NCBI GenBank assembly: GCA_963666485.2
Contig: CAXXUO010000009.1
Location: 433,517 to 497,516 of the forward strand
From: Syntrophorhabdaceae bacterium
GTDB lineage: Bacteria > Desulfobacterota > Syntrophorhabdia > Syntrophorhabdales > Syntrophorhabdaceae
Length of the DNA stretch: 64,000 nucleotides
Direction: 5' to 3'
The translations under genes were made by a program, and so were the position numbers. The notes beneath the pieces are model-generated. The model did not search any database. It was not told where the DNA came from and saw nothing but the letters and a program-made list of their open reading frames with translations. Below are positions 9,751-64,000 of this stretch, in pieces (the first letter of the stretch is position 1; each line of letters begins with the position of its first letter).

Positions 9751-9883
9751 AAAAAGACTTCTCTCGCCCGCTTCGCTTGAGGACACAGAGAACGCGGGGA
9801 ACAGCGGAGAAGAAAAGACTTGTCGACTGATCGCGGAGCCGACCACGATCAGTCGACACTTCCGTCGGCTTCGCCGAGAAAAG
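9751..9883 (+). repeat. Structured ~130 bp dispersed repeat, copy A
   Basis: CTCTCGCCCGCTTCGCT..GATCGCGGAGCCGACCACGATC..GTCGGCTTCGCCGA shared with copies at 59.7-61.3 kb. Confidence 0.9.
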
Positions 9884-55637: not shown

Positions 55638-58346
55638 TTACGGCTTGATATATCGACTATCTAAAATATAAACTTTGCCCCAATCTGTCTCTGATCGTAT
55701 CAACCGACCAATCCCTTGTCGTAGCTTAATATCTTTTTCATATGAATATCTCTGCCAATATATATCCCGGTTCATCGTTCTCTTTCTCGACAATTGGATA
55801 GGATCATTGGGATTGGGAAACGGCAAACGCGTTATAATTAGCTGCGTAAGAGTATCGCCCTTAAAATCTACACCATACCAAAATGTATCTACGCCAAAGA
55901 GTACGCTTTCCTTTATAGTCCGAAACTCTTCTGAAATTCCAATTGTCGAAATGCCCGGCTCTTGTATGAAGAGAGGAAAGCCGGCTTCGATTATTTGTTC
56001 TGATACCTCTTTCGCCACCTTTTTCAAGTCCTCGTAACTGGAAAACAAAACCAACGTGCTTCCATTGTTCTTTGTGATTAAATCCGGAAGAATATCAATG
56101 ACCTTCTTGCACCAGACTTCCTTATTATTATATTCACCGCTTACCGCATCTTTATGACAAATGATTTCCATGGCACCCGGCGCAAATGGCGAAGGGATGC
56201 AACAAGATTTTACCACTTTTATGCTTGCGCCAGGTTTCATCACACCGATGATACCCCCAAATATATCAAACGATTCCTTTTGGCTCAATGTTGCAGATGT
56301 ATAAACAATGCTATCTTTTTCTTTATGGATCTTATTATTTATGATCTCTGAAACATCGACTGGTTGCAAACTCAAGATCCAGTTTTTTTCAAAAATCCGA
56401 TAAGACAGAACATTATTATCATCGATTATTTTTTCAATAATCTCTTTTACATTTTCAAGACATTCCTTAAGTTGATCTAAATACGTTCCAAGTCGGTTGA
56501 CTTTTCTTCGCGAGAGACCAGCCTCTTTGGGATTGTCCAAGTTGTCCAGCACATCAAACTGCTTTACAATGTCAGTAATATTCTCTTTAATTGGGTTCAA
56601 ATGATTTTCTAAGTGTCCGTTTTTAAATTTGTGGTCATTGGGTCTTAAATGATGCATTTCAGTCACATTTGAATTTGTATGATTGTTCATGCTTTTTAAA
56701 ATCAAAGAAATCGTATTAACTTCATTCTTTAAAGCATCGATAAATGCCAGTACTTGTTTCATCGCAGGTTGAAAGCTAGCAGACCCTTTTGCATTGATAG
56801 AATTTGCTACGTTCTTGATGTAATTAACAATCTCAAAAAGATCTTTGGAAACAAGATCAATACCAAAAGCATCTCTAACAGCATGTTCGAAATGGCTCGC
56901 TTCATCAATTATATAATTACTAAACAATCCTGATAGTAACGCCTCAGCCTGCAGTAAAGCCAGTTTGCTATGATTTGTGACAATCAAGCGAGAAGCAAGC
57001 GCTTCACCCATTACTACCTGGGCCGGGCATGTTTTGTGGCTCACGGAGCAACCGTTCTTTGCTGATATTTCGTTAAGGAACTGTCCAAAATCGAGGTTTT
57101 TTTCTAATACCTTTTTTACCTTGCTACCTACAACGTCCCCTTCTGCATCCCGAAAATGAAAAACAAGATTCAGCAAATACAGCCACGCCAGAATGTAATT
57201 TGGACCTTTTTCTTCGTCATAAAGATCATCAAGCTTTTCGACACATATATAATTACTCTTTCCCTTTAAAAGCGCGTATGAGATATCTTGGAACTTTTTA
57301 TGAGTGTCTGTCAGATGTTTTATTTCTCTGTTATAAATTTGATTCTGTAGATTCTTGGTATACGTAGAAATGGCTACTCTAGAATCAGGATTTAAATATA
57401 AATGTTCCATGACGGGAATTAAATATCCTTGAGTTTTTCCTGTTCCTGTCCCAGCCTCAATAATCAGAATTTGACCTTCATTTAGTGCATGAGCTATTTC
57501 TCTTGAATATTCTATTTGCGTAGGTCGATCATTGAAATTGCGATCATTTGCTCTAAATTCTGCATAAGCTTGGTCAATACTGGCGGGTATTATTTTTTTA
57601 TATGGAACTTTTTCTTTCTTTTTGACGTGCAAGTCCTGAGATTTTGGAAGAAATTGCCTCCAATCATTTGTGTCATCTTTGGTATATGGATTCAGTAAAC
57701 CACCCTCAATGTGACCAAAATAGGATTGATAGTTTTTTGTTATATGAGCGAAAATTTGCCCAAAAAGCGAATTGCTTTTTAGTAGGCAGTATCTTATCAC
57801 GGTGGCATTCGGGTTTTCTGTATCATTTAGTATTTTCCCGCAAATGTACCTTATCAGATCTAAACAAATATTGACCACTTCGCCCGCATCAAAAGAAATT
57901 TTGTTGCGTGGCTTACCATTGAAGAATTCCCATAGATTCTTGAAAGAATGGGACTCCAGAAATGGTAAAAAATACTCGGCAGCAAAATGAAGATCAACAA
58001 TACGTTTTGCACCGGTATAAAATTGTAAATCTTTGGAGATATCATTATTGTCAAACATGAAGATATATTTCTGATTTCGCAAAAAGAAAGTGACTTCCTC
58101 GGCCACCTGTTCCTTCGGAGGAGCTTTGACTAATTTGTCCTTAGAAACGTTCGAATAATGATATTCTTTTGCTGTTGTCTTTGTATAACGTACCAGAGAA
58201 CTATAGGAATTTTGCCGAGCGTTTTCCCCTATAATGATAGCCGCTATTTGATATATGCGATTATCATTGTCGTCTTTATCCTTAGCGCCGCTATGGGCAT
58301 AAACGAACGTCAGGTCATCCTGAATGTCGTCCAAAGGCCTTAACAT
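55638..58346 (-). CDS. DinG/YoaA-family helicase with degenerate exonuclease-like N-terminus
   Basis: EAGTGTGKT, KGKSNYIC, TNH, IIDEASH, SATL, FWYGVD, RLPF, QGIGRLIR. Confidence 0.9.
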   Translation of the reverse strand: MLRPLDDIQDDLTFVYAHSGAKDKDDNDNRIYQIAAIIIGENARQNSYSSLVRYTKTTAKEYHYSNVSKDKLVKAPPKEQVAEEVTFFLRNQKYIFMFDNNDISKDLQFYTGAKRIVDLHFAAEYFLPFLESHSFKNLWEFFNGKPRNKISFDAGEVVNICLDLIRYICGKILNDTENPNATVIRYCLLKSNSLFGQIFAHITKNYQSYFGHIEGGLLNPYTKDDTNDWRQFLPKSQDLHVKKKEKVPYKKIIPASIDQAYAEFRANDRNFNDRPTQIEYSREIAHALNEGQILIIEAGTGTGKTQGYLIPVMEHLYLNPDSRVAISTYTKNLQNQIYNREIKHLTDTHKKFQDISYALLKGKSNYICVEKLDDLYDEEKGPNYILAWLYLLNLVFHFRDAEGDVVGSKVKKVLEKNLDFGQFLNEISAKNGCSVSHKTCPAQVVMGEALASRLIVTNHSKLALLQAEALLSGLFSNYIIDEASHFEHAVRDAFGIDLVSKDLFEIVNYIKNVANSINAKGSASFQPAMKQVLAFIDALKNEVNTISLILKSMNNHTNSNVTEMHHLRPNDHKFKNGHLENHLNPIKENITDIVKQFDVLDNLDNPKEAGLSRRKVNRLGTYLDQLKECLENVKEIIEKIIDDNNVLSYRIFEKNWILSLQPVDVSEIINNKIHKEKDSIVYTSATLSQKESFDIFGGIIGVMKPGASIKVVKSCCIPSPFAPGAMEIICHKDAVSGEYNNKEVWCKKVIDILPDLITKNNGSTLVLFSSYEDLKKVAKEVSEQIIEAGFPLFIQEPGISTIGISEEFRTIKESVLFGVDTFWYGVDFKGDTLTQLIITRLPFPNPNDPIQLSRKRTMNRDIYWQRYSYEKDIKLRQGIGRLIRSETDWGKVYILDSRYIKP

Positions 58347-58365
58347 TCTTCTATATCATTTCCTT

Positions 58366-58950
58366 TCAATCAACCTGTACTGACCAACCGCTACCGTTTC
58401 TCGTTAAATCTGACCCAGGATTGGTCTTGGCAAATGTCATCGCGTCTTCGAATACACTAAAATATACGACAGTTGGTCTTGTGGTCATCCTTGCGTCCGG
58501 CGATACTAAAATGTGCGCCTTGTCCGCAAGAACGATTTTACTAGTATATTTTGGCCCGTATAGTGGGTGTCCACATCCGCAAGCACCGCAATGATAAAGA
58601 ATCCATCCACATATATTACATTCCGCATCAATGTTTGAATCAAGGTCTAACCCACAGTTATAGCAGTGCACTTCCCGCCTCCCCTTATTCGGGTCCCGCA
58701 TTCGCACACCACAATAGGGTATATTACGTTCTTCGAGAAATTCTTTGTGATATTGGATCAATGATTCTGGACCACGGTCCAGTTTGATAAGTTGCCACGA
58801 GGCATCCGTTAAATTAAGGGTTGTTTTGCTATGTTTCGAAAATACTATGTCTACATGCCCATCTTCCGCGACATGAAGAATTCTCCCCACACCCCATTCG
58901 AGGGCTTCCGGATGCCTCACTAAATCATTTATGTTAAGATTTAGTTTCAT
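58366..58950 (-). CDS. DUF3553-like SH3 domain plus Cys-rich (Zn-finger) protein
   Basis: VRHP..EWGVGRI; CYNC..CNICGW..CGACGC. Confidence 0.65.
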   Translation of the reverse strand: MKLNLNINDLVRHPEALEWGVGRILHVAEDGHVDIVFSKHSKTTLNLTDASWQLIKLDRGPESLIQYHKEFLEERNIPYCGVRMRDPNKGRREVHCYNCGLDLDSNIDAECNICGWILYHCGACGCGHPLYGPKYTSKIVLADKAHILVSPDARMTTRPTVVYFSVFEDAMTFAKTNPGSDLTRNGSGWSVQVD

Positions 58951-59265
58951 CTTATATGAAAAAATTATTTATTAACTGAACTGTATTAATATCTTACAAA
59001 ATATATATGAAAAAATCATTACATAATCATACAAAAATGTGCTTTTTGCCGAGAGAAGACGGGAACGTTCCTCCAGGAAATAACTAGCTATCAATTCCTG
59101 AAATGCCTGTTTAATGTCCTACGATTCGGCAGTAAACGGGGAAGCGAGAAAAGGCCACCGCAAAATAGCTTGGCTCCTGGTTTCTCAACGGCTTCGCCGT
59201 CAGGTGGCTGGCGGTAAATAATAGTCGTCACCGTTTATGGATATCTGTTACAATCATCTGATTGG

Positions 59266-59712
59266 ATGATACCTAACGTTTCAGGGGGCGATGTGGAGAA
59301 ACTTAAAGAAGAAAGACAAAGCGCTGAAGAAATATTGGGCCCCGATAGCCTGACCGTTTCCTTGAAATCGCTGACGCTCTACCGGGATTATCTCAGTAAG
59401 CACCTCGAAATGCCCTGCGTCATGACCGGGATCGAAAATTATCCCTGGGACGGCAACTATGTCTCCGGCTGCAACGATAAGGCTGAATATGAGGCCTTGA
59501 AGAATGACCAGCCTTCTCCCACTGATATTTACGAATTGAAGCGTTTTGAGGAGCTGATAGACGAGCATGGCGGAATACTGGTCAAGGTGAAACGGGTGAG
59601 AGACAACCGCCGTTTCATACTTGACCTTGCGTCTCTGAAAGCAGTGGATGAGTCATCCAGAAATTGCGGGCTCCTTGCTGAGTACTCTTCCTGGTTCGTC
59701 AATCATAGATGA
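59266..59712 (+). CDS. CcbP-like (calcium-binding protein family) protein
   Basis: Y..YL..HL..P..TGIE.Y.W..EYE..PS..R.F.L.L..L..Y..WFVN. Confidence 0.6.
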   Translation: MIPNVSGGDVEKLKEERQSAEEILGPDSLTVSLKSLTLYRDYLSKHLEMPCVMTGIENYPWDGNYVSGCNDKAEYEALKNDQPSPTDIYELKRFEELIDEHGGILVKVKRVRDNRRFILDLASLKAVDESSRNCGLLAEYSSWFVNHR

Positions 59713-60102
59713 AAAAGACTTCCTCTCTCGCTCGCTTCGCTAGAGGGCGCAGAGAACGCGGAGAAAGGCGGAGGGCCGGCTGATCGCGGAGCCGACCACG
59801 ATCAGCCGGCAACTTCGTCGGCTTCGCCGAGGAGAAGAGTGAGATTGGACCCGGGAATGGTAGCTCTGGCGCGACGCTTTGAGGGATTAAAATCCCCATA
59901 GTCCCCTACAAATTTAACGAAGCACGGTAGAAAACCGGCTCTTTTCCTTCGCCGAAGGCGACGGAAGTGCCCCTAACAGCCGGGTACCCGCCTCCGAGCT
60001 TGCTAATGGCGGGTGGCAATGGTCGGCTCCGCGATCCGGCCGCAAATCTTTTCTTCGCAGTTCTCTGTGTTCTCCGCGGTCTCTAGCGAAGCGGGCGAGA
60101 GG
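59712..60102. repeat. Inverted pair of the ~130 bp repeat (copy B +, copy C -)
   Basis: B 59712-59837; C 59944-60102 with one hairpin arm replaced. Confidence 0.9.
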
Positions 60103-60335
60103 ATGTCCTTTCTTGCCGTTGCCCGGGACCGCATCGGCTCTGGAAAAGTAATAGGAGACCATGGAGATGCGAAATGGGGGTGTTCTTTGATATCCGTTTT
60201 TCTCTTAAATGTCTGAAACAAATAAGACATAATGTTACCATATATGAACAAATGAGTACTATTTGTCTGGCAGAAGAACGCGATCTCTGGTGCGCGAATC
60301 ACAATATCGGACAGGATTTCTTGGGGGAAATAACC

Positions 60336-60923
60336 ATGGGTGCGGAAAACACATTCAGAAAGTATGGCGGTCAGCTTCGCATGAAGGAAGCTATAAATCA
60401 GGGTATCTCCCGCTATATGCTATACTCCCTCAGGGACAGGGGCGTCATCGAGCAGGTTAGCAGGGGGATTTATCGGCTTGTCGATATGCCCCCGATCAGC
60501 AATCCCGACCTGGTTACGGTCAGCCTCCGTTTTCCGAACGCTGTCATTTGTCTCATTTCTGCTCTTGCCTACCACGAGATCACAACCCAGATCTCGCATG
60601 CTGTCTCAGTGGCTGTCCCGAGAGATTCACGGATGCCGTCCCTCGACTATCCACCCGTACATGCCTATAGATTTTCACATGAAGCATACGGAGCCGGCAT
60701 CGAGGAACACCGTATCGACAATGTGACGGTCAAGGTCTACAGTCCTGAGAAAACCCTGGCTGATTGCTTCAAGTATCGCAACAAGATCGGAATGGATGTG
60801 GTGCTGGAAGCAATCCGTTTCTATCATAAACGCGGGAATATCAGGGTAGATGACCTTATGCGTTACGCTGACATCTGCAGGGTAACCAGGATCATTCGTC
60901 CGTACCTGGAGGCCCTCCTGTGA
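60336..60923 (+). CDS. AbiEi-family (type IV TA) antitoxin
   Basis: RGIYRL..AVICLISAL.YH.IT..YSPEKTLADCFKYRNKIG. Confidence 0.88.
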   Translation: MGAENTFRKYGGQLRMKEAINQGISRYMLYSLRDRGVIEQVSRGIYRLVDMPPISNPDLVTVSLRFPNAVICLISALAYHEITTQISHAVSVAVPRDSRMPSLDYPPVHAYRFSHEAYGAGIEEHRIDNVTVKVYSPEKTLADCFKYRNKIGMDVVLEAIRFYHKRGNIRVDDLMRYADICRVTRIIRPYLEALL

Positions 60924-60991
60924 TGTCCGCAAAGATACTAAACATGGCGGAGAAAATAGTGTCAGGTCTCAGCGGAGGGATAAAAACAGCG

Positions 60992-61298
60992 AAAGACTTG
61001 CCTCTCGCCCGCTTCGCTAGAGACCGCGGAGAACACAGAGAACTGCGGAGGGCCGGCTGATCGCGGAGCCGACCACGATCAGCCGGCAACTTCGTCGGCT
61101 TCGCCGAGGAGAAGAATCCGGTTTGACCAGGGAATGGGGGCTCTGGCAGGATGCGTTGAGGGATTATTATTGGTTCGTTTCCTTCGCCGAAGGCGACGGA
61201 AGTGCGGCCGGATCGTGGTCGGCTCCGCGATCCGGCCGCAAATCTTTTCTCCGCAGTTCTCTGTGTTCTCCGCGGTCTCTAGCGAAGCGGGCGAGAGA
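60992..61298. repeat. Inverted pair of the ~130 bp repeat (copy D +, copy E -)
   Basis: D 60992-61115; E 61180-61298; the unit is a direct repeat of 59712-60102. Confidence 0.9.
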
Positions 61299-61341
61299 AT
61301 TCTTTTTCGTTATTACCCACAGCCAGATCGAGTCGGGGCGT

Positions 61342-61374
61342 CTAAAACCGGTTCGTATACCTAATCTCTCGCAT
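61342..61374 (-). pseudogene. 10-codon remnant of a YafQ-like toxin
   Basis: MREIRYTNRF* overlapping the antitoxin stop. Confidence 0.55.
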
Positions 61375-61624
61375 TGAGTTTCTCAAGGAGCTGATCAGGA
61401 GTACCCGCTTTCTTGAGGTCGCCGCGCCGCGCGGCTTTCATTGCTTCAATGGTTTCATCGTTGGGGACCAGGGGCTCAAACGGCAGGGCCTTTTCCCGCG
61501 CTATCCGAACGATCATCATGCGGAAGGCATCAGAGATGGTCAGTCCGATGGAATCCAGCACGCTTTGGGCTTCATCCCTCAAATCCTTATCAATACGCGC
61601 CCGGACAACAGGTTTGGAAGCCAT
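61361..61624 (-). CDS. RelB/DinJ-family antitoxin
   Basis: VRARID..A..VL..IGLTISDAFR..LPFEPLVPN.ETIEAM. Confidence 0.9.
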   Translation of the reverse strand: MASKPVVRARIDKDLRDEAQSVLDSIGLTISDAFRMMIVRIAREKALPFEPLVPNDETIEAMKAARRGDLKKAGTPDQLLEKLNARD

Positions 61625-61640
61625 GATATCATTTCCTCCT

Positions 61641-61676
61641 GAGCTACATTGTAGCCCAAATATGGTATTACGTCAA
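61641..61676 (-). promoter_or_regulatory. Promoter and palindromic operator of the dinJ-like gene
   Basis: TTGACG-N17-TACAAT with GCTACA-N-TGTAGC palindrome over the -10 box. Confidence 0.7.
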
Positions 61677-61733
61677 GTTTGAATGAGTCGCTTACCGTAG
61701 CAGGCACTTTCAGCATACGAGGCCCGAGAGTTT

Positions 61734-62336
61734 CTACATTCCCATTCCCGGGGAAAAATAGTAGTCGTCGCTGTTGTCGGATTGGAGCGTGTCGGGAGAT
61801 GCGCCGGCAACGTGTAGCGGTTCCTTATCCGACTCGCTGAATGGACCGGGGACGTAGTTTGGCAGATATTCGCTCTTTGGCCGGAGGAATTTTGCTCCGC
61901 CTTTCTCCGAGTCAAGCTTCAGCCTGTCCCTGGGAATATTGATGACCCCGGGGCCGTTGGTGCTGTTGTTTGAACCGTAAAGTGTCCCTTTGTTCTTTTC
62001 GGGATCGTAGTCGACGACAAAACCGGTGTGACCGTATACGTGTCCCGGGGGCGGCGCCCAGACGACAATATCTCCCGGTTGGACCTCCTTCCTGTCAATT
62101 ACATCGAAGTATTTCTCGGCGGCCTTCGAACGCAGCCAGTTGGTATCGAACCTGTTCTTGAATGGGAATGGCATTCCGTAACCCTCTGCCCGAAGCACGG
62201 AAGAAACCAGCCCGGAACAGTCAATGTCCTTGACCTTATCCCCGGTGATATCGGTTGTGCCGTCTCCTCCGGCCGAGTAGCCATAGTCTTCCGGCTTATA
62301 GGTTTTCATCGCTCTTTCCAATAGGTTACCGGACAT
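61734..62336 (-). CDS. NlpC/P60 (CHAP-like) peptidoglycan hydrolase without signal peptide
   Basis: IDCSGLV..PGDIVVW..GHTG. Confidence 0.8.
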   Translation of the reverse strand: MSGNLLERAMKTYKPEDYGYSAGGDGTTDITGDKVKDIDCSGLVSSVLRAEGYGMPFPFKNRFDTNWLRSKAAEKYFDVIDRKEVQPGDIVVWAPPPGHVYGHTGFVVDYDPEKNKGTLYGSNNSTNGPGVINIPRDRLKLDSEKGGAKFLRPKSEYLPNYVPGPFSESDKEPLHVAGASPDTLQSDNSDDYYFSPGMGM

Positions 62337-62337
62337 T

Positions 62338-62898
62338 TTATTCCTCCGTTTCTTCTATCTCATTCAATTGCTTTAAGGTTTCGATTGCGTATTCGTTATG
62401 CTCCAGGTCGATAAATCGTTTCAGGTGATCAATCGCGATATCGAGCAAAACATGTGGCGTTGTTTGCGGCCCCGATATGCGCCATCTTTTTCCATCTTTC
62501 TTGAGAATAAAAGTGATCACCGTTTTTCTGTTATTAGGAATCCACTCAAACAGATTTGTATCGCCAAGTTCCCGGTAGGTAACCTCTATACAAGCTTTTT
62601 CGGATTCCACGCTCATTGTCTCAATGTCATATCCGGCAATTATAGTGAAACCGTCAGATCCCGCTTCCTCCCACATGAAAAGGTCCCTGATTTCGTCGAA
62701 CCTTTTGCCAAAAGCCCGTGCCCCCTCGGCGTCCTTCCGGACATATTCCTCGACGACCTCCTCCGGAGTCGCGGGGTACTCTGTGTCACTCCGAACAACG
62801 CATTCCGTCTGAACGGCAAAAGCCGGTGCGCATGAAATGAGCAGCAGAGAAAACACCATTATGATGATGAAGCATCTCTTTGGAAAACAAAGCTCCAT
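62338..62898 (-). CDS. Exported protein/lipoprotein (NTF2/DUF4878-like)
   Basis: Signal peptide with LISC/AFA; TPEEVVEEY..L.KDGKRWRI. Confidence 0.65.
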   Translation of the reverse strand: MELCFPKRCFIIIMVFSLLLISCAPAFAVQTECVVRSDTEYPATPEEVVEEYVRKDAEGARAFGKRFDEIRDLFMWEEAGSDGFTIIAGYDIETMSVESEKACIEVTYRELGDTNLFEWIPNNRKTVITFILKKDGKRWRISGPQTTPHVLLDIAIDHLKRFIDLEHNEYAIETLKQLNEIEETEE

Positions 62899-63190
62899 AT
62901 CGCCTCCTTTTTATCTGGTATTACTTTTCGTTTGTAAGAAAAGTCCCAAACGGAAGTTTATTAAACCTTTCTTGTGTTACGTTTGATAAGGGAGCAACGT
63001 ATGCAGGGAAGTTTAATAAGGAGCGACAGTCGGGGCGACAGCGACACTATATACCCTGTATATACCTAAAGGTGGAACAATACGGATGAACATCACAGCA
63101 ACAACTCGTTCCAATTCTTCGATAAGCCGAGTGGGGGGGTATATCGTTATGTAATGTGCGTGCGGCGTGCCCACTGTTCCCGGATGAACT

Positions 63191-63949
63191 TTATAATCCG
63201 TATATCATTCGCAAGTTCTCCAGCACCCCATTTAGAGGTGCACCTTTTAGACCAAGACCTTTCAGGTCTACGGGGCCATCATTCGCGATTCTCTCGATAA
63301 AACAATTCATGTCAGCCTTTATCTTGTCTGGAATGCCCGGAAGAGTCTTAACTGATAACAATTGATACAGTCGAAATATATCGTTCTTATGTTTGCGAAT
63401 ATCCTTGCTGTCAATTGTCTCACCTCTTGCGGCTCGTTCCAGCATATCCAGCCACGCGCGGGCCTTCAGTGGTACAAGGTGTTCGGCTCCAATCATCGAC
63501 AATCCCTCGATTTCACGCTTTCCGGAATGAATAAATCCGTAATAGATCTCATCCAGCAGTATGGCTGACAGGCTCGACAGTTCTTCGTCTACGGGAATTG
63601 GGGTCAGATGGCTATTTTTACCCACGTCCAGACTATCCGGAGTGCGGGAAAAGAGTTCCAGCATAGCCGGATAGGTGTCATCTTCGGGCGAATAAAAACG
63701 GTAGAAAAGCCTTCTTCCGGTACTTTGTTGTTTATTCTGATATCTGCCGATCTTGATGAAATCCCAAAACGCTTTTACAAAAGAGTCATCAAGCGCCTCG
63801 ACACATAACACTATGTCCAGATCCCTGGTTGCGCGAAATACAAGGCCCGCATTATCCATGGCCAAAGAACATGCGGCCCCTCCGATAAGCACGTACCGGT
63901 CGTTATAGACATTGAAGTGATCCCTGAAGCGGTCAAGGCCTTTTACCAC
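63191..63949 (-). CDS. AbiEii-like nucleotidyltransferase toxin
   Basis: YVLIGGAAC..RATRDLD..LKARAWLD..KHKND. Confidence 0.75.
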   Translation of the reverse strand: MVKGLDRFRDHFNVYNDRYVLIGGAACSLAMDNAGLVFRATRDLDIVLCVEALDDSFVKAFWDFIKIGRYQNKQQSTGRRLFYRFYSPEDDTYPAMLELFSRTPDSLDVGKNSHLTPIPVDEELSSLSAILLDEIYYGFIHSGKREIEGLSMIGAEHLVPLKARAWLDMLERAARGETIDSKDIRKHKNDIFRLYQLLSVKTLPGIPDKIKADMNCFIERIANDGPVDLKGLGLKGAPLNGVLENLRMIYGL

Positions 63950-64000
63950 GTTACGCTCTCCATCATTGTCGCGAGCGCCGATTCCACGCGCTCATCCTTA
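63943..64000 (-). CDS. 3' end of the probable cognate antitoxin (partial)
   Basis: ..KDERVESALATMMESVTW* overlapping the toxin start. Confidence 0.55.
   Translation of the reverse strand, partial: KDERVESALATMMESVTW

Follow-up and report, generated by a model that had tools for sequence, protein, structure and literature searches.

ERIC/IRU elements are described as 127-bp imperfect palindromes, which are non-coding, occur in tens of copies and lie in transcribed intergenic regions near gene ends; the same account gives variants with internal insertions or deletions, stem-loop transcripts and an orientation-dependent effect on mRNA, together with 7-bp terminal inverted repeats (TIRs), TA ends and a target duplication (PMC2229807). 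YPAL/RU-2, a 168-bp palindrome of Yersinia, is described there as not being A+T-rich and as lacking a strict requirement for TA at its ends; its insertions fall within or beside sequences of dyad symmetry, with filled and empty sites between relatives and target duplications of 3-26 bp (PMC2229807). Here, we report a family of palindromic repeats found in a 64,000-nt stretch of DNA (hereafter, the window, numbered from its first base) from the genome of a Syntrophorhabdaceae bacterium (assembly GCA_963666485.2, contig CAXXUO010000009.1; C9:433517-497516). The host genome comprises 3.77 Mb in 10 contigs, has a G+C content of 55% and is 99% complete. Judged by analogy, ERIC/IRU and YPAL/RU-2 are the closest analogues of the present family.

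As in ERIC/IRU, so far as that source describes them, the elements reported here are palindromic and non-coding, occur in tens of copies at gene ends and include insertion and deletion variants. In contrast to ERIC/IRU, they have GC-rich arms of ~130 nt and modular hairpins with conserved loops, no clear duplication of TA was seen, and the two share no similarity in sequence. The likeness to YPAL/RU-2, within the same account, lies in a composition that is not A+T-rich, ends without an obligatory TA, filled and empty sites and insertion at dyad symmetry, whereas no target duplication was seen here and both the sequence and the host group are different. RUP and Correia elements have TIRs that are common with, or tied to, known transposases, and their TA is duplicated (PMC2229807). 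[quoted passage not shown] Their membership of the MITEs is therefore partial. REP, BIME and REPIN sequences are extragenic palindromes with proposed roles in termination and mRNA stabilisation (PMC3116915, PMC3337134, PMC3733652), and the REP itself is described as a short palindrome of 20-40 nt, one end of which carries a conserved tag, GTAG or CGTC (PMC3733652). With these the present family shares the extragenic palindrome, the inverted doublets that form one long hairpin and the mosaic structure.

We found that the repeats form a dispersed, non-coding palindromic family with structure-conserved hairpins, which is placed tightly at gene ends and whose presence differs between relatives. 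Our preferred reading, to which we assign a probability of roughly 60%, is that they represent an undescribed family of non-autonomous palindromic mosaic repeats of the MITE/ERIC/BIME/REP-like kind, residing in a Syntrophorhabdus-like genome and distributed patchily in the Desulfobacterota. Its uncommon traits are a terminus that spans orders, conserved loops on free stems, nested modules, near-exact abutment on stop codons and no mobilising enzyme identified. No description of the family was found in full-text searches of the literature or in Rfam, although the supplementary tables of genome papers could hold one; a full-text search with 13-14-nt terminus strings returned only one unrelated plant paper, and one on repeats in Syntrophorhabdus gave nothing of relevance.

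Arm architecture and hairpin covariation

The exact 22-nt core GATCGCGGAGCCGACCACGATC was found four times in the window, at positions 9829, 59782 and 61059 on the + strand and at 61211 on the - strand, and it had no match in 100 dinucleotide shuffles of the window. A fifth copy of the core (60015-60036) is interrupted and carries four mismatches. An earlier note on this DNA had listed five copies, including one at 9751-9883, around an invariant core. The five copies were recovered and mapped as arms A-E, and the core is exact in four of them, but arm C has lost half of one hairpin and carries an inserted module of ~50 nt. Each window copy is an arm of ~125-175 nt, far longer than the core; arms B and C and arms D and E form inverted doublets, and arm A is a singlet.

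From the outside to the inside, an arm consists of an A-run followed by AAGAC, 2-5 variable bases, the conserved terminus TCTCGCCCGCTTCGCTNGAG and two or three 9-nt subterminal repeats (CRCAGAGAA). The inner part of the arm holds a GC-rich hairpin of 15-16 bp with the conserved loop GG-AGCCNN-CC (hairpin 1), followed by a hairpin of 5-8 bp (hairpin 2). The terminus and the 9-nt repeats together make up a conserved terminal part of ~50 nt, and the outermost 10-15 nt vary in length among copies. In a doublet, the first arm is followed by a spacer and a second, diverged arm in inverted orientation, usually over 300-350 nt. The outward strand of each arm holds two copies of the motif GCGAAGC, which is very stable as a DNA mini-hairpin; one lies in the terminus and the other in hairpin 2.

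Arm A (9753-9882, + strand) contains the terminus, the 9-nt subterminal repeats and an exact core, and corresponds to the nhmmer match C9:443269-443398; its hairpin 1 (9821-9858) and hairpin 2 (9865-9877) were checked in the sequence. Doublet 1 begins with arm B (59713-59838, + strand; terminus 59726-59741, hairpin 1 59774-59811, hairpin 2 59818-59830), which starts directly 3' of the TGA stop codon (59710-59712) of the ORF 59266-59712. Its central spacer (59839-59936), delimited by an alignment of all genome copies, is followed by arm C (59937-60110, - strand; hairpin 2 59949-59961, terminus 60085-60100), in which sequence and alignment leave only half of hairpin 1 (60020-60044) and the nested module (59968-60022) takes the place of the other half. 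Doublet 2 comprises arm D (60992-61115, + strand; terminus 61003-61018, hairpin 1 61051-61088, hairpin 2 61095-61107), a central spacer (61116-61178) and arm E (61179-61305, - strand; hairpin 2 61184-61196, hairpin 1 61203-61240, terminus 61281-61296).

The nested module is itself a hairpin with the conserved loop TCCGAGCTTGCTA, and its stems are compensated among copies (CCCGCC/GGCGGG versus CCCAAC/GTTGGG). A BLAST search against the genome revealed nine further long copies inside weak-type arms and three variant copies near termini; the module is present at C1:15595-15640, C1:1161562-1161584, C2:648180-648202 and C9:22583-22609, among other places. The module occupies one of two arm positions, within hairpin 1 or beside the terminus, and it looks like a separate small insertion module.

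Covariation in hairpin 1 was evaluated with gap-free, loop-centred windows of 44 nt from 35 arms (34 distinct) of this genome and many others; from the 38 first listed, one mis-picked sequence and two redundant copies from this genome were left out. On the outside-to-inside strand, standard pairs were present in 90.1% of 544 cells, and 13 of the 16 pairs had changed on both sides (80 cells). The covariation score was 0.425, compared with 0.119 ± 0.014 in shuffles, none of which reached as high a value (0/500); in slid controls, with the partners moved by 1-3 columns, it was 0.04-0.08. The stems of hairpin 1 differ widely among genomes, and the loop, the two closing G-C pairs and the internal GATC are fixed. 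Within the window, the outer stems are different and yet paired, with GTCGAC in arm A, GCCGGC in arms B and D and GCGGCCG in arm E. Hairpin 2 reads TCGGC-TTC-GCCGA in arms A, B and D and TCGCC-GAA-GGCGA (+ strand) in arms C and E; as a stem of at least 5 bp within 35 nt, it was present in 32 of 34 arms, against a mean of 11.4 and a maximum of 20 in shuffles, and its sequence differs among genomes. These hairpins are kept by compensatory change. The earlier note had seen both sets of paired changes in the window copies, and the covariation held in the larger, multi-genome alignment, in agreement with a single-strand fold that is kept by selection or another force.

The two strands do not fold equally well. 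On the opposite strand of hairpin 1, 95.2% of cells pair, and wobble cells number 36 versus 8, so that pairing is better on the inside-to-outside strand, the one favoured by G-U wobbles. In particular, at the position of the C/A mismatch (20 of 34 sequences), the opposite strand has U-G in 19, C-G in 10 and U-A in 4; the change of the mismatch to T(U)-G, already noticed in the window, thus extends to 19 of the 34 distinct family members. The whole doublet folds as one long branched hairpin, with predicted energies of -199 kcal/mol as RNA (z = -14.8) and -137 kcal/mol as DNA (z = -18.4).

Distribution and position next to genes

An iterated nhmmer search of the genome yielded 45 arm matches, and those of at least 30 bits were grouped into 23 loci, namely 19 inverted doublets (212-398 nt) and four singlets. 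The inverted doublet, first seen as B/C and D/E in the window, is therefore the form taken at 19/23 loci genome-wide. Copies are up to ~94% alike within the genome. A core variant, GGTC...GACC, in which G-C replaces A-T on both sides of the stem, is present in 16 arms dispersed over five contigs, and the GATC variant of the window type is limited to the window and the end of contig C1. In regions of negative GC skew the elements are of mixed orientation (7 + and 11 -), so that no relation to the skew was apparent, the skew itself being weak; a link to the replication strand was set aside.

The assembly breaks at or near the repeats, and contigs end at family copies. A public contig of 6204 nt covers window positions 61268-63000 and ends in an element copy matching C1:1411270. 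Because this contig joins the two, the end of C9 (window position 64000) runs on into the reverse complement of the C1 end (~1414653), and with this join one accessory region holds five elements that all point the same way. No excision joints were found among the contig pieces of public runs around window positions 57000-63000, which break at the repeats.

Position relative to genes was assessed for the 25 arms with a strong-type terminus, using ORFs of at least 150 codons that read into the element. A long ORF ends within 60 nt upstream of the terminus in 19 of these arms; in 15 of the 25, no more than 20 nt separate the stop from the terminus anchor. By comparison, 20,000 random positions gave 5.9% and 2.5% for the two distances, and positions that avoid long open frames gave 12.5% and 4.4%. 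Several of the TAA stops overlap the A-run of the element. The weak-type arms behaved alike, nine of them having an ORF of at least 90 aa that reads in and stops 9-44 nt before the terminus anchor. Moreover, 9 of the 19 doublets fill the entire spacer between convergent genes. The dispersed copies adjoin ordinary genes, such as those for histidine kinases, alr, bioB, a type II secretion system (T2SS) F protein, CorA and an AMP-dependent ligase; accessory genes (AbiEi, RelB, PD-(D/E)XK, ERCC4 and CHAP) surround the GATC copies. At ~21 of 38 ends, judged by eye, the A-run is directly bordered on its outer side by TA, and 7 of the 19 doublets have this at both ends.

Comparison of orthologous sites revealed filled, empty and remnant states. 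Between an HD-GYP-type gene and alr, this genome carries a doublet and G006 a doublet that differs from it but belongs to the family; terminus fragments are present in G007 and G014, and G011 carries a 30-nt palindrome that consists of the two outermost termini fused. The bioB site is filled in G002, and the unrelated spacers of 23 and 38 nt in G007 and G015 were read as empty sites. The site between the flavodoxin and AMP-ligase genes is empty in G011 and in one metagenome contig, where the two stops are 1 nt apart. A metagenome scan with a degenerate pattern taken from the 3' end of the flavodoxin gene gave 15 loci, of which the one relevant locus was this empty allele like that of G011, and the scan returned no same-species strain and no same-species empty site. 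At the HD/AI-2E site, G011 retains only a solo terminus. From these filled, empty and remnant sites, it follows that presence differs between species, that sites are re-usable and that internal deletions leave termini behind. As a common target, the fused mini-palindrome was rejected: it had two chance-like matches in this genome and, out of five genomes, one each in G011 and G006, and because of this rarity it was taken as a deletion product. At the alr site, removal of the element together with one TA would leave two overlapping stop codons. This arrangement fits insertion at a TA that regenerates TAA, a fit that is inseparable from the association with stop codons.

The alr site of G009 (L162, G009:C116) is occupied by an unrelated inverted repeat with three 9-nt subterminal repeats (GCTTGAATN) per end, which begins directly after both stop codons. 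The HD-GYP/alr site seems to attract elements of such architecture.

In a search with a 129-nt arm against 41 relatives, counting this genome, matches were obtained in 11, including 8 of the 19 other genus members and 2 of the 4 members of a genus that belongs to a different family of the order. Conservation beyond the genus is limited to the first ~50 nt, that is, the terminus and the 9-nt repeats. In other lineages, the terminus is followed by a hairpin with a conserved TGAGAGG-like loop, whose stems are unrelated from genome to genome. The exact 20-nt IUPAC pattern of the terminus occurred in at least 115 stretches of a species-representative collection; among the matches listed, most were in metagenome-assembled genomes labelled Syntrophorhabdus, Deltaproteobacteria/Thermodesulfobacteriota, Desulfosarcina or Desulfobacterales, and a minority in other phyla was taken as chance because nhmmer gave no match there. 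In an even sample of the phylum, the same pattern was present in 13 of 401 Desulfobacterota genomes (this one counted), with up to 27 copies per genome, and the reversed control pattern in 0 of 401. The viral contigs and plasmids searched contained no matches.

The array formed by the C9-C1 join raises the question of integron-like cassettes. The attC sites, e.g. the Vibrio VCRs, are conserved in structure over sequence, fold better on one strand and begin at the preceding stop codon, and their arrays run in the same orientation and hold accessory genes. The present family is alike in all of these respects. In the array, the five elements share one orientation and the last three are separated by single genes, the genes being accessory (AbiEi, RelB, PD-(D/E)XK and ERCC4); elements also begin directly behind stop codons, which is common for attC sites. 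A Desulfosarcina chromosome record (~8.7 kb) likewise holds five termini in the same orientation, each after a further 60-nt repeat, separated by small genes that are MazEF-, VapBC- and HicAB-like by translation only, and it resembles a cassette array. Each gene with its following element would then be a mobile cassette of a site-specific recombinase. However, we consider this very improbable. The best match to the integron integrase model TIGR02249 had 73 bits against a cut-off of 265, so that no IntI passed it, and no recombinase or transposase was present among the 27 ORFs scanned in ~21 kb around the array (~9 kb of the window and 12.6 kb of the C1 end). At 300-350 nt, the inverted doublets are three times longer than attC sites; inspection by eye showed no core sites of the GTTRRRY type; and most copies are dispersed beside core genes, the 16 arms with the GGTC core lying beside alr, bioB, histidine kinases and corA. 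At orthologous housekeeping sites, only the element differs and the neighbouring gene is unchanged.

Candidate mobilising enzymes, possible termination and neighbouring genes

The earlier note had proposed a REP/REPIN-like, non-autonomous element, and such a system would involve a Y1/HUH transposase that recognises the hairpins as single-stranded DNA and excises and inserts doublets. The copies are indeed arranged as inverted doublets, their loops are conserved on freely covarying stems, and a clear target duplication was not seen; one strand folds better, as strand-specific recognition of a single strand predicts. In addition, Y1_Tnp-domain proteins of ~280-370 aa, starting with MARPLRI..., are present in 17 of the 19 other genus genomes, often in several copies (e.g. 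L166-L169). On balance, we regard a REPIN-type origin as quite unlikely. Y1_Tnp is absent from this 99% complete genome, which holds 16 near-identical arms (PF01797, 0 matches, with control genomes positive), and among relatives the domain does not track the element; for example, G012 and G018 have Y1 and no element match. None of the six Y1 loci examined in relatives has a family copy, and the proposed RAYT or HUH gene flanked by the repeat was thus encountered neither there nor in this genome. In the 35-sequence alignment, no GTAG or CGTC tag stands beside hairpin 1; the arms measure ~130 nt versus 20-40 nt for REPs; the loci number 23 versus hundreds for REPINs; and orientation is unrelated to the GC skew, itself weak here. 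The part of the proposal that stands is a dispersed, non-coding and apparently non-autonomous element; judged by RAYT, tag, unit size and copy number, it does not qualify as a REPIN.

Insertion sequences were considered as parents. Repeats of at least 400 bp in the genome comprise duplicates of tuf and of an acyl-CoA dehydrogenase gene and two element families, all with unrelated ends. The two families, of the IS256 type (4 copies; G000:C1:987716-989086 and 3 further places) and the IS110 type (~5 copies; G000:C3:257709-258958 and 4 further places), are the sole multicopy ISs, and both were rejected; known IS ends gave no match. A further short hairpin repeat, CATCCCGGTGCTTGACACCGGGATC-like in sequence, flanks the IS110 copies.

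Several features of the arms are terminator-like. On the outward strand, hairpin 1 is followed by an (A)ATCTTTTCTCT-like tail in most arms, and in most class-1 arms, a stem of 15-16 bp is followed by (A)AUCUUUUCU. The mean T content was 7.9 in 14 nt on the outward strand versus 5.5 on the other strand. Hairpin 1 of arm E is followed by AATCTTTTCT on the + strand in a terminator-like manner, and arm E was the one arm flagged by a simple terminator scan. The elements are probably co-transcribed and terminator-like. If the preferred reading of a non-autonomous element holds, a role in termination or at the 3' end is a tentative proposal, with odds clearly below even.

The same features could also mark small RNA genes. 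Transcription of an arm from the inside outwards would give an RNA of ~70-90 nt, made up of hairpin 2, hairpin 1 and the U-tail, with a function of its own. The G-U wobbles favour that strand (36 vs 8 cells), a hairpin with a U-rich tail resembles the 3' end of a small RNA, and a weak sigma-70-like match in the spacer of doublet 2 (61143-61170), which is a consensus match only, points into arm E. There is no competing Rfam family: the Rfam check proposed in the earlier note gave no match at the gathering score in the window, and only hits of E = 0.56 and 0.96 in 59600-61400. The second reading of the earlier note, an undescribed structured RNA, may still hold. Nevertheless, we find small RNA genes a doubtful explanation with little likelihood. 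The terminus, the most conserved part across taxa, would fall outside such an RNA, the promoter-like match is weak and found in one doublet only, and the U-tail is absent from some arms. Moreover, mobile DNA typically shows the two-fold inverted symmetry, the insertions and deletions inside copies, the fragments left at orthologous sites and the patchy distribution seen here.

Under the preferred reading of a non-autonomous repeat, the following course of events may be envisaged. Copies would spread, now or recently, by means of an enzyme acting in trans, and they would land at or next to the TA of a stop codon in such a way that TAA is regenerated. Once placed, elements would be transcribed along with the flanking genes, in the 3' regions of their neighbours, and the hairpin and U-rich tail of each arm may serve as an outward-facing terminator or as a structure protecting the 3' end. 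A doublet between convergent genes could then act as a bidirectional terminator, each transcript stopping at the far arm, which would give structured, overlapping 3' ends. In its strongest form, the proposal is a mobile bidirectional terminator that would seek out the TA of stop codons, often at the meeting point of convergent genes, restore both stops and take the place of the native terminator; an enzyme common to several Desulfobacterota orders would move it by reading the conserved terminus and hairpin loops as single strands. We consider this strong form rather unlikely.

A number of observations weigh against the element reading and its mechanism. With respect to an enzyme, the absence of Y1/RAYT, the sub-threshold integrase match and the unrelated ends of the IS256 and IS110 families have been described above; in addition, DDE_3/IS630 had no match in this genome and was found in 1 of 19 in the genus. 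Across 80 loci with flanks of 2.5 kb, a gene was never enclosed by a pair of termini, the elements had no ORF family in common and none recurred beside the termini; an autonomous element with such termini was not seen. There is no clean target-site duplication, and the TAs are mostly part of TAA or TAG stops and are confounded with the stop-codon association. The terminus remnants at orthologous sites in the nearest relative indicate that some sites are old, and gene conversion, in place of recent transposition, could account for how alike the copies in this genome are. As for the fold, the shuffle control leaves the kinship among copies in place, and template-switch repair can keep palindromes without any selection. 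With respect to termination, arms B and D are without the U-rich tail (12 nt absent), the tail is weak in most weak-type arms, and in other lineages the same terminus is joined to the different hairpin with the TGAGAGG loop and flanks of T- and A-runs, which is not terminator-like. Between co-directional genes, the better-conserved arm lies next to the upstream gene in 6 of 7 doublets (those with an upstream stop within 60 nt), and the better terminator faces that gene, the wrong way for terminating it; this count is a trend only, because three of the six belong to one array.

Several genes and frames adjoin the repeats of the window. An AbiEi-type antitoxin-like gene (60337-60923, + strand; Pfam AbiEi_4, E 6e-12, on the ORF 60174-60920) is enclosed by doublets 1 and 2 and lies outside the repeat proper. 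No AbiEii partner adjoins it, and doublet 2 occupies the place expected for the partner. A RelB-type antitoxin gene (61361-61624, - strand) follows on the opposite strand, and a 252-aa ORF (63191-63949, - strand) had no Pfam match. ORFs of 65-84 aa with similar peptides run through the repeat arms at 59699-59899 (-), 59914-60162 (-), 60892-61089 (-) and 61123-61377 (+); in all likelihood they are spurious, and annotation could mistake them for genes.

Meaning for the family and its hosts

In syntrophic and sulfate-reducing Desulfobacterota, hardly any repeat families of this kind have been described. A mobile bidirectional terminator, if true, would represent a system of transposition or recombination that falls under none of the RAYT, IS200/IS605, DDE-MITE and integron schemes; without a new enzyme behind it, the family would be one more of the ERIC/REP-like kind. 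In either case, knowledge of the family improves annotation and binning, since its copies break assemblies and spurious ORFs lie inside the elements. With its clean covariation in non-coding DNA, a 20-nt terminus shared across orders and a near-exact position at stop codons, it also offers a workable system for asking how small palindromic repeats pick their targets and whether they are portable terminators.

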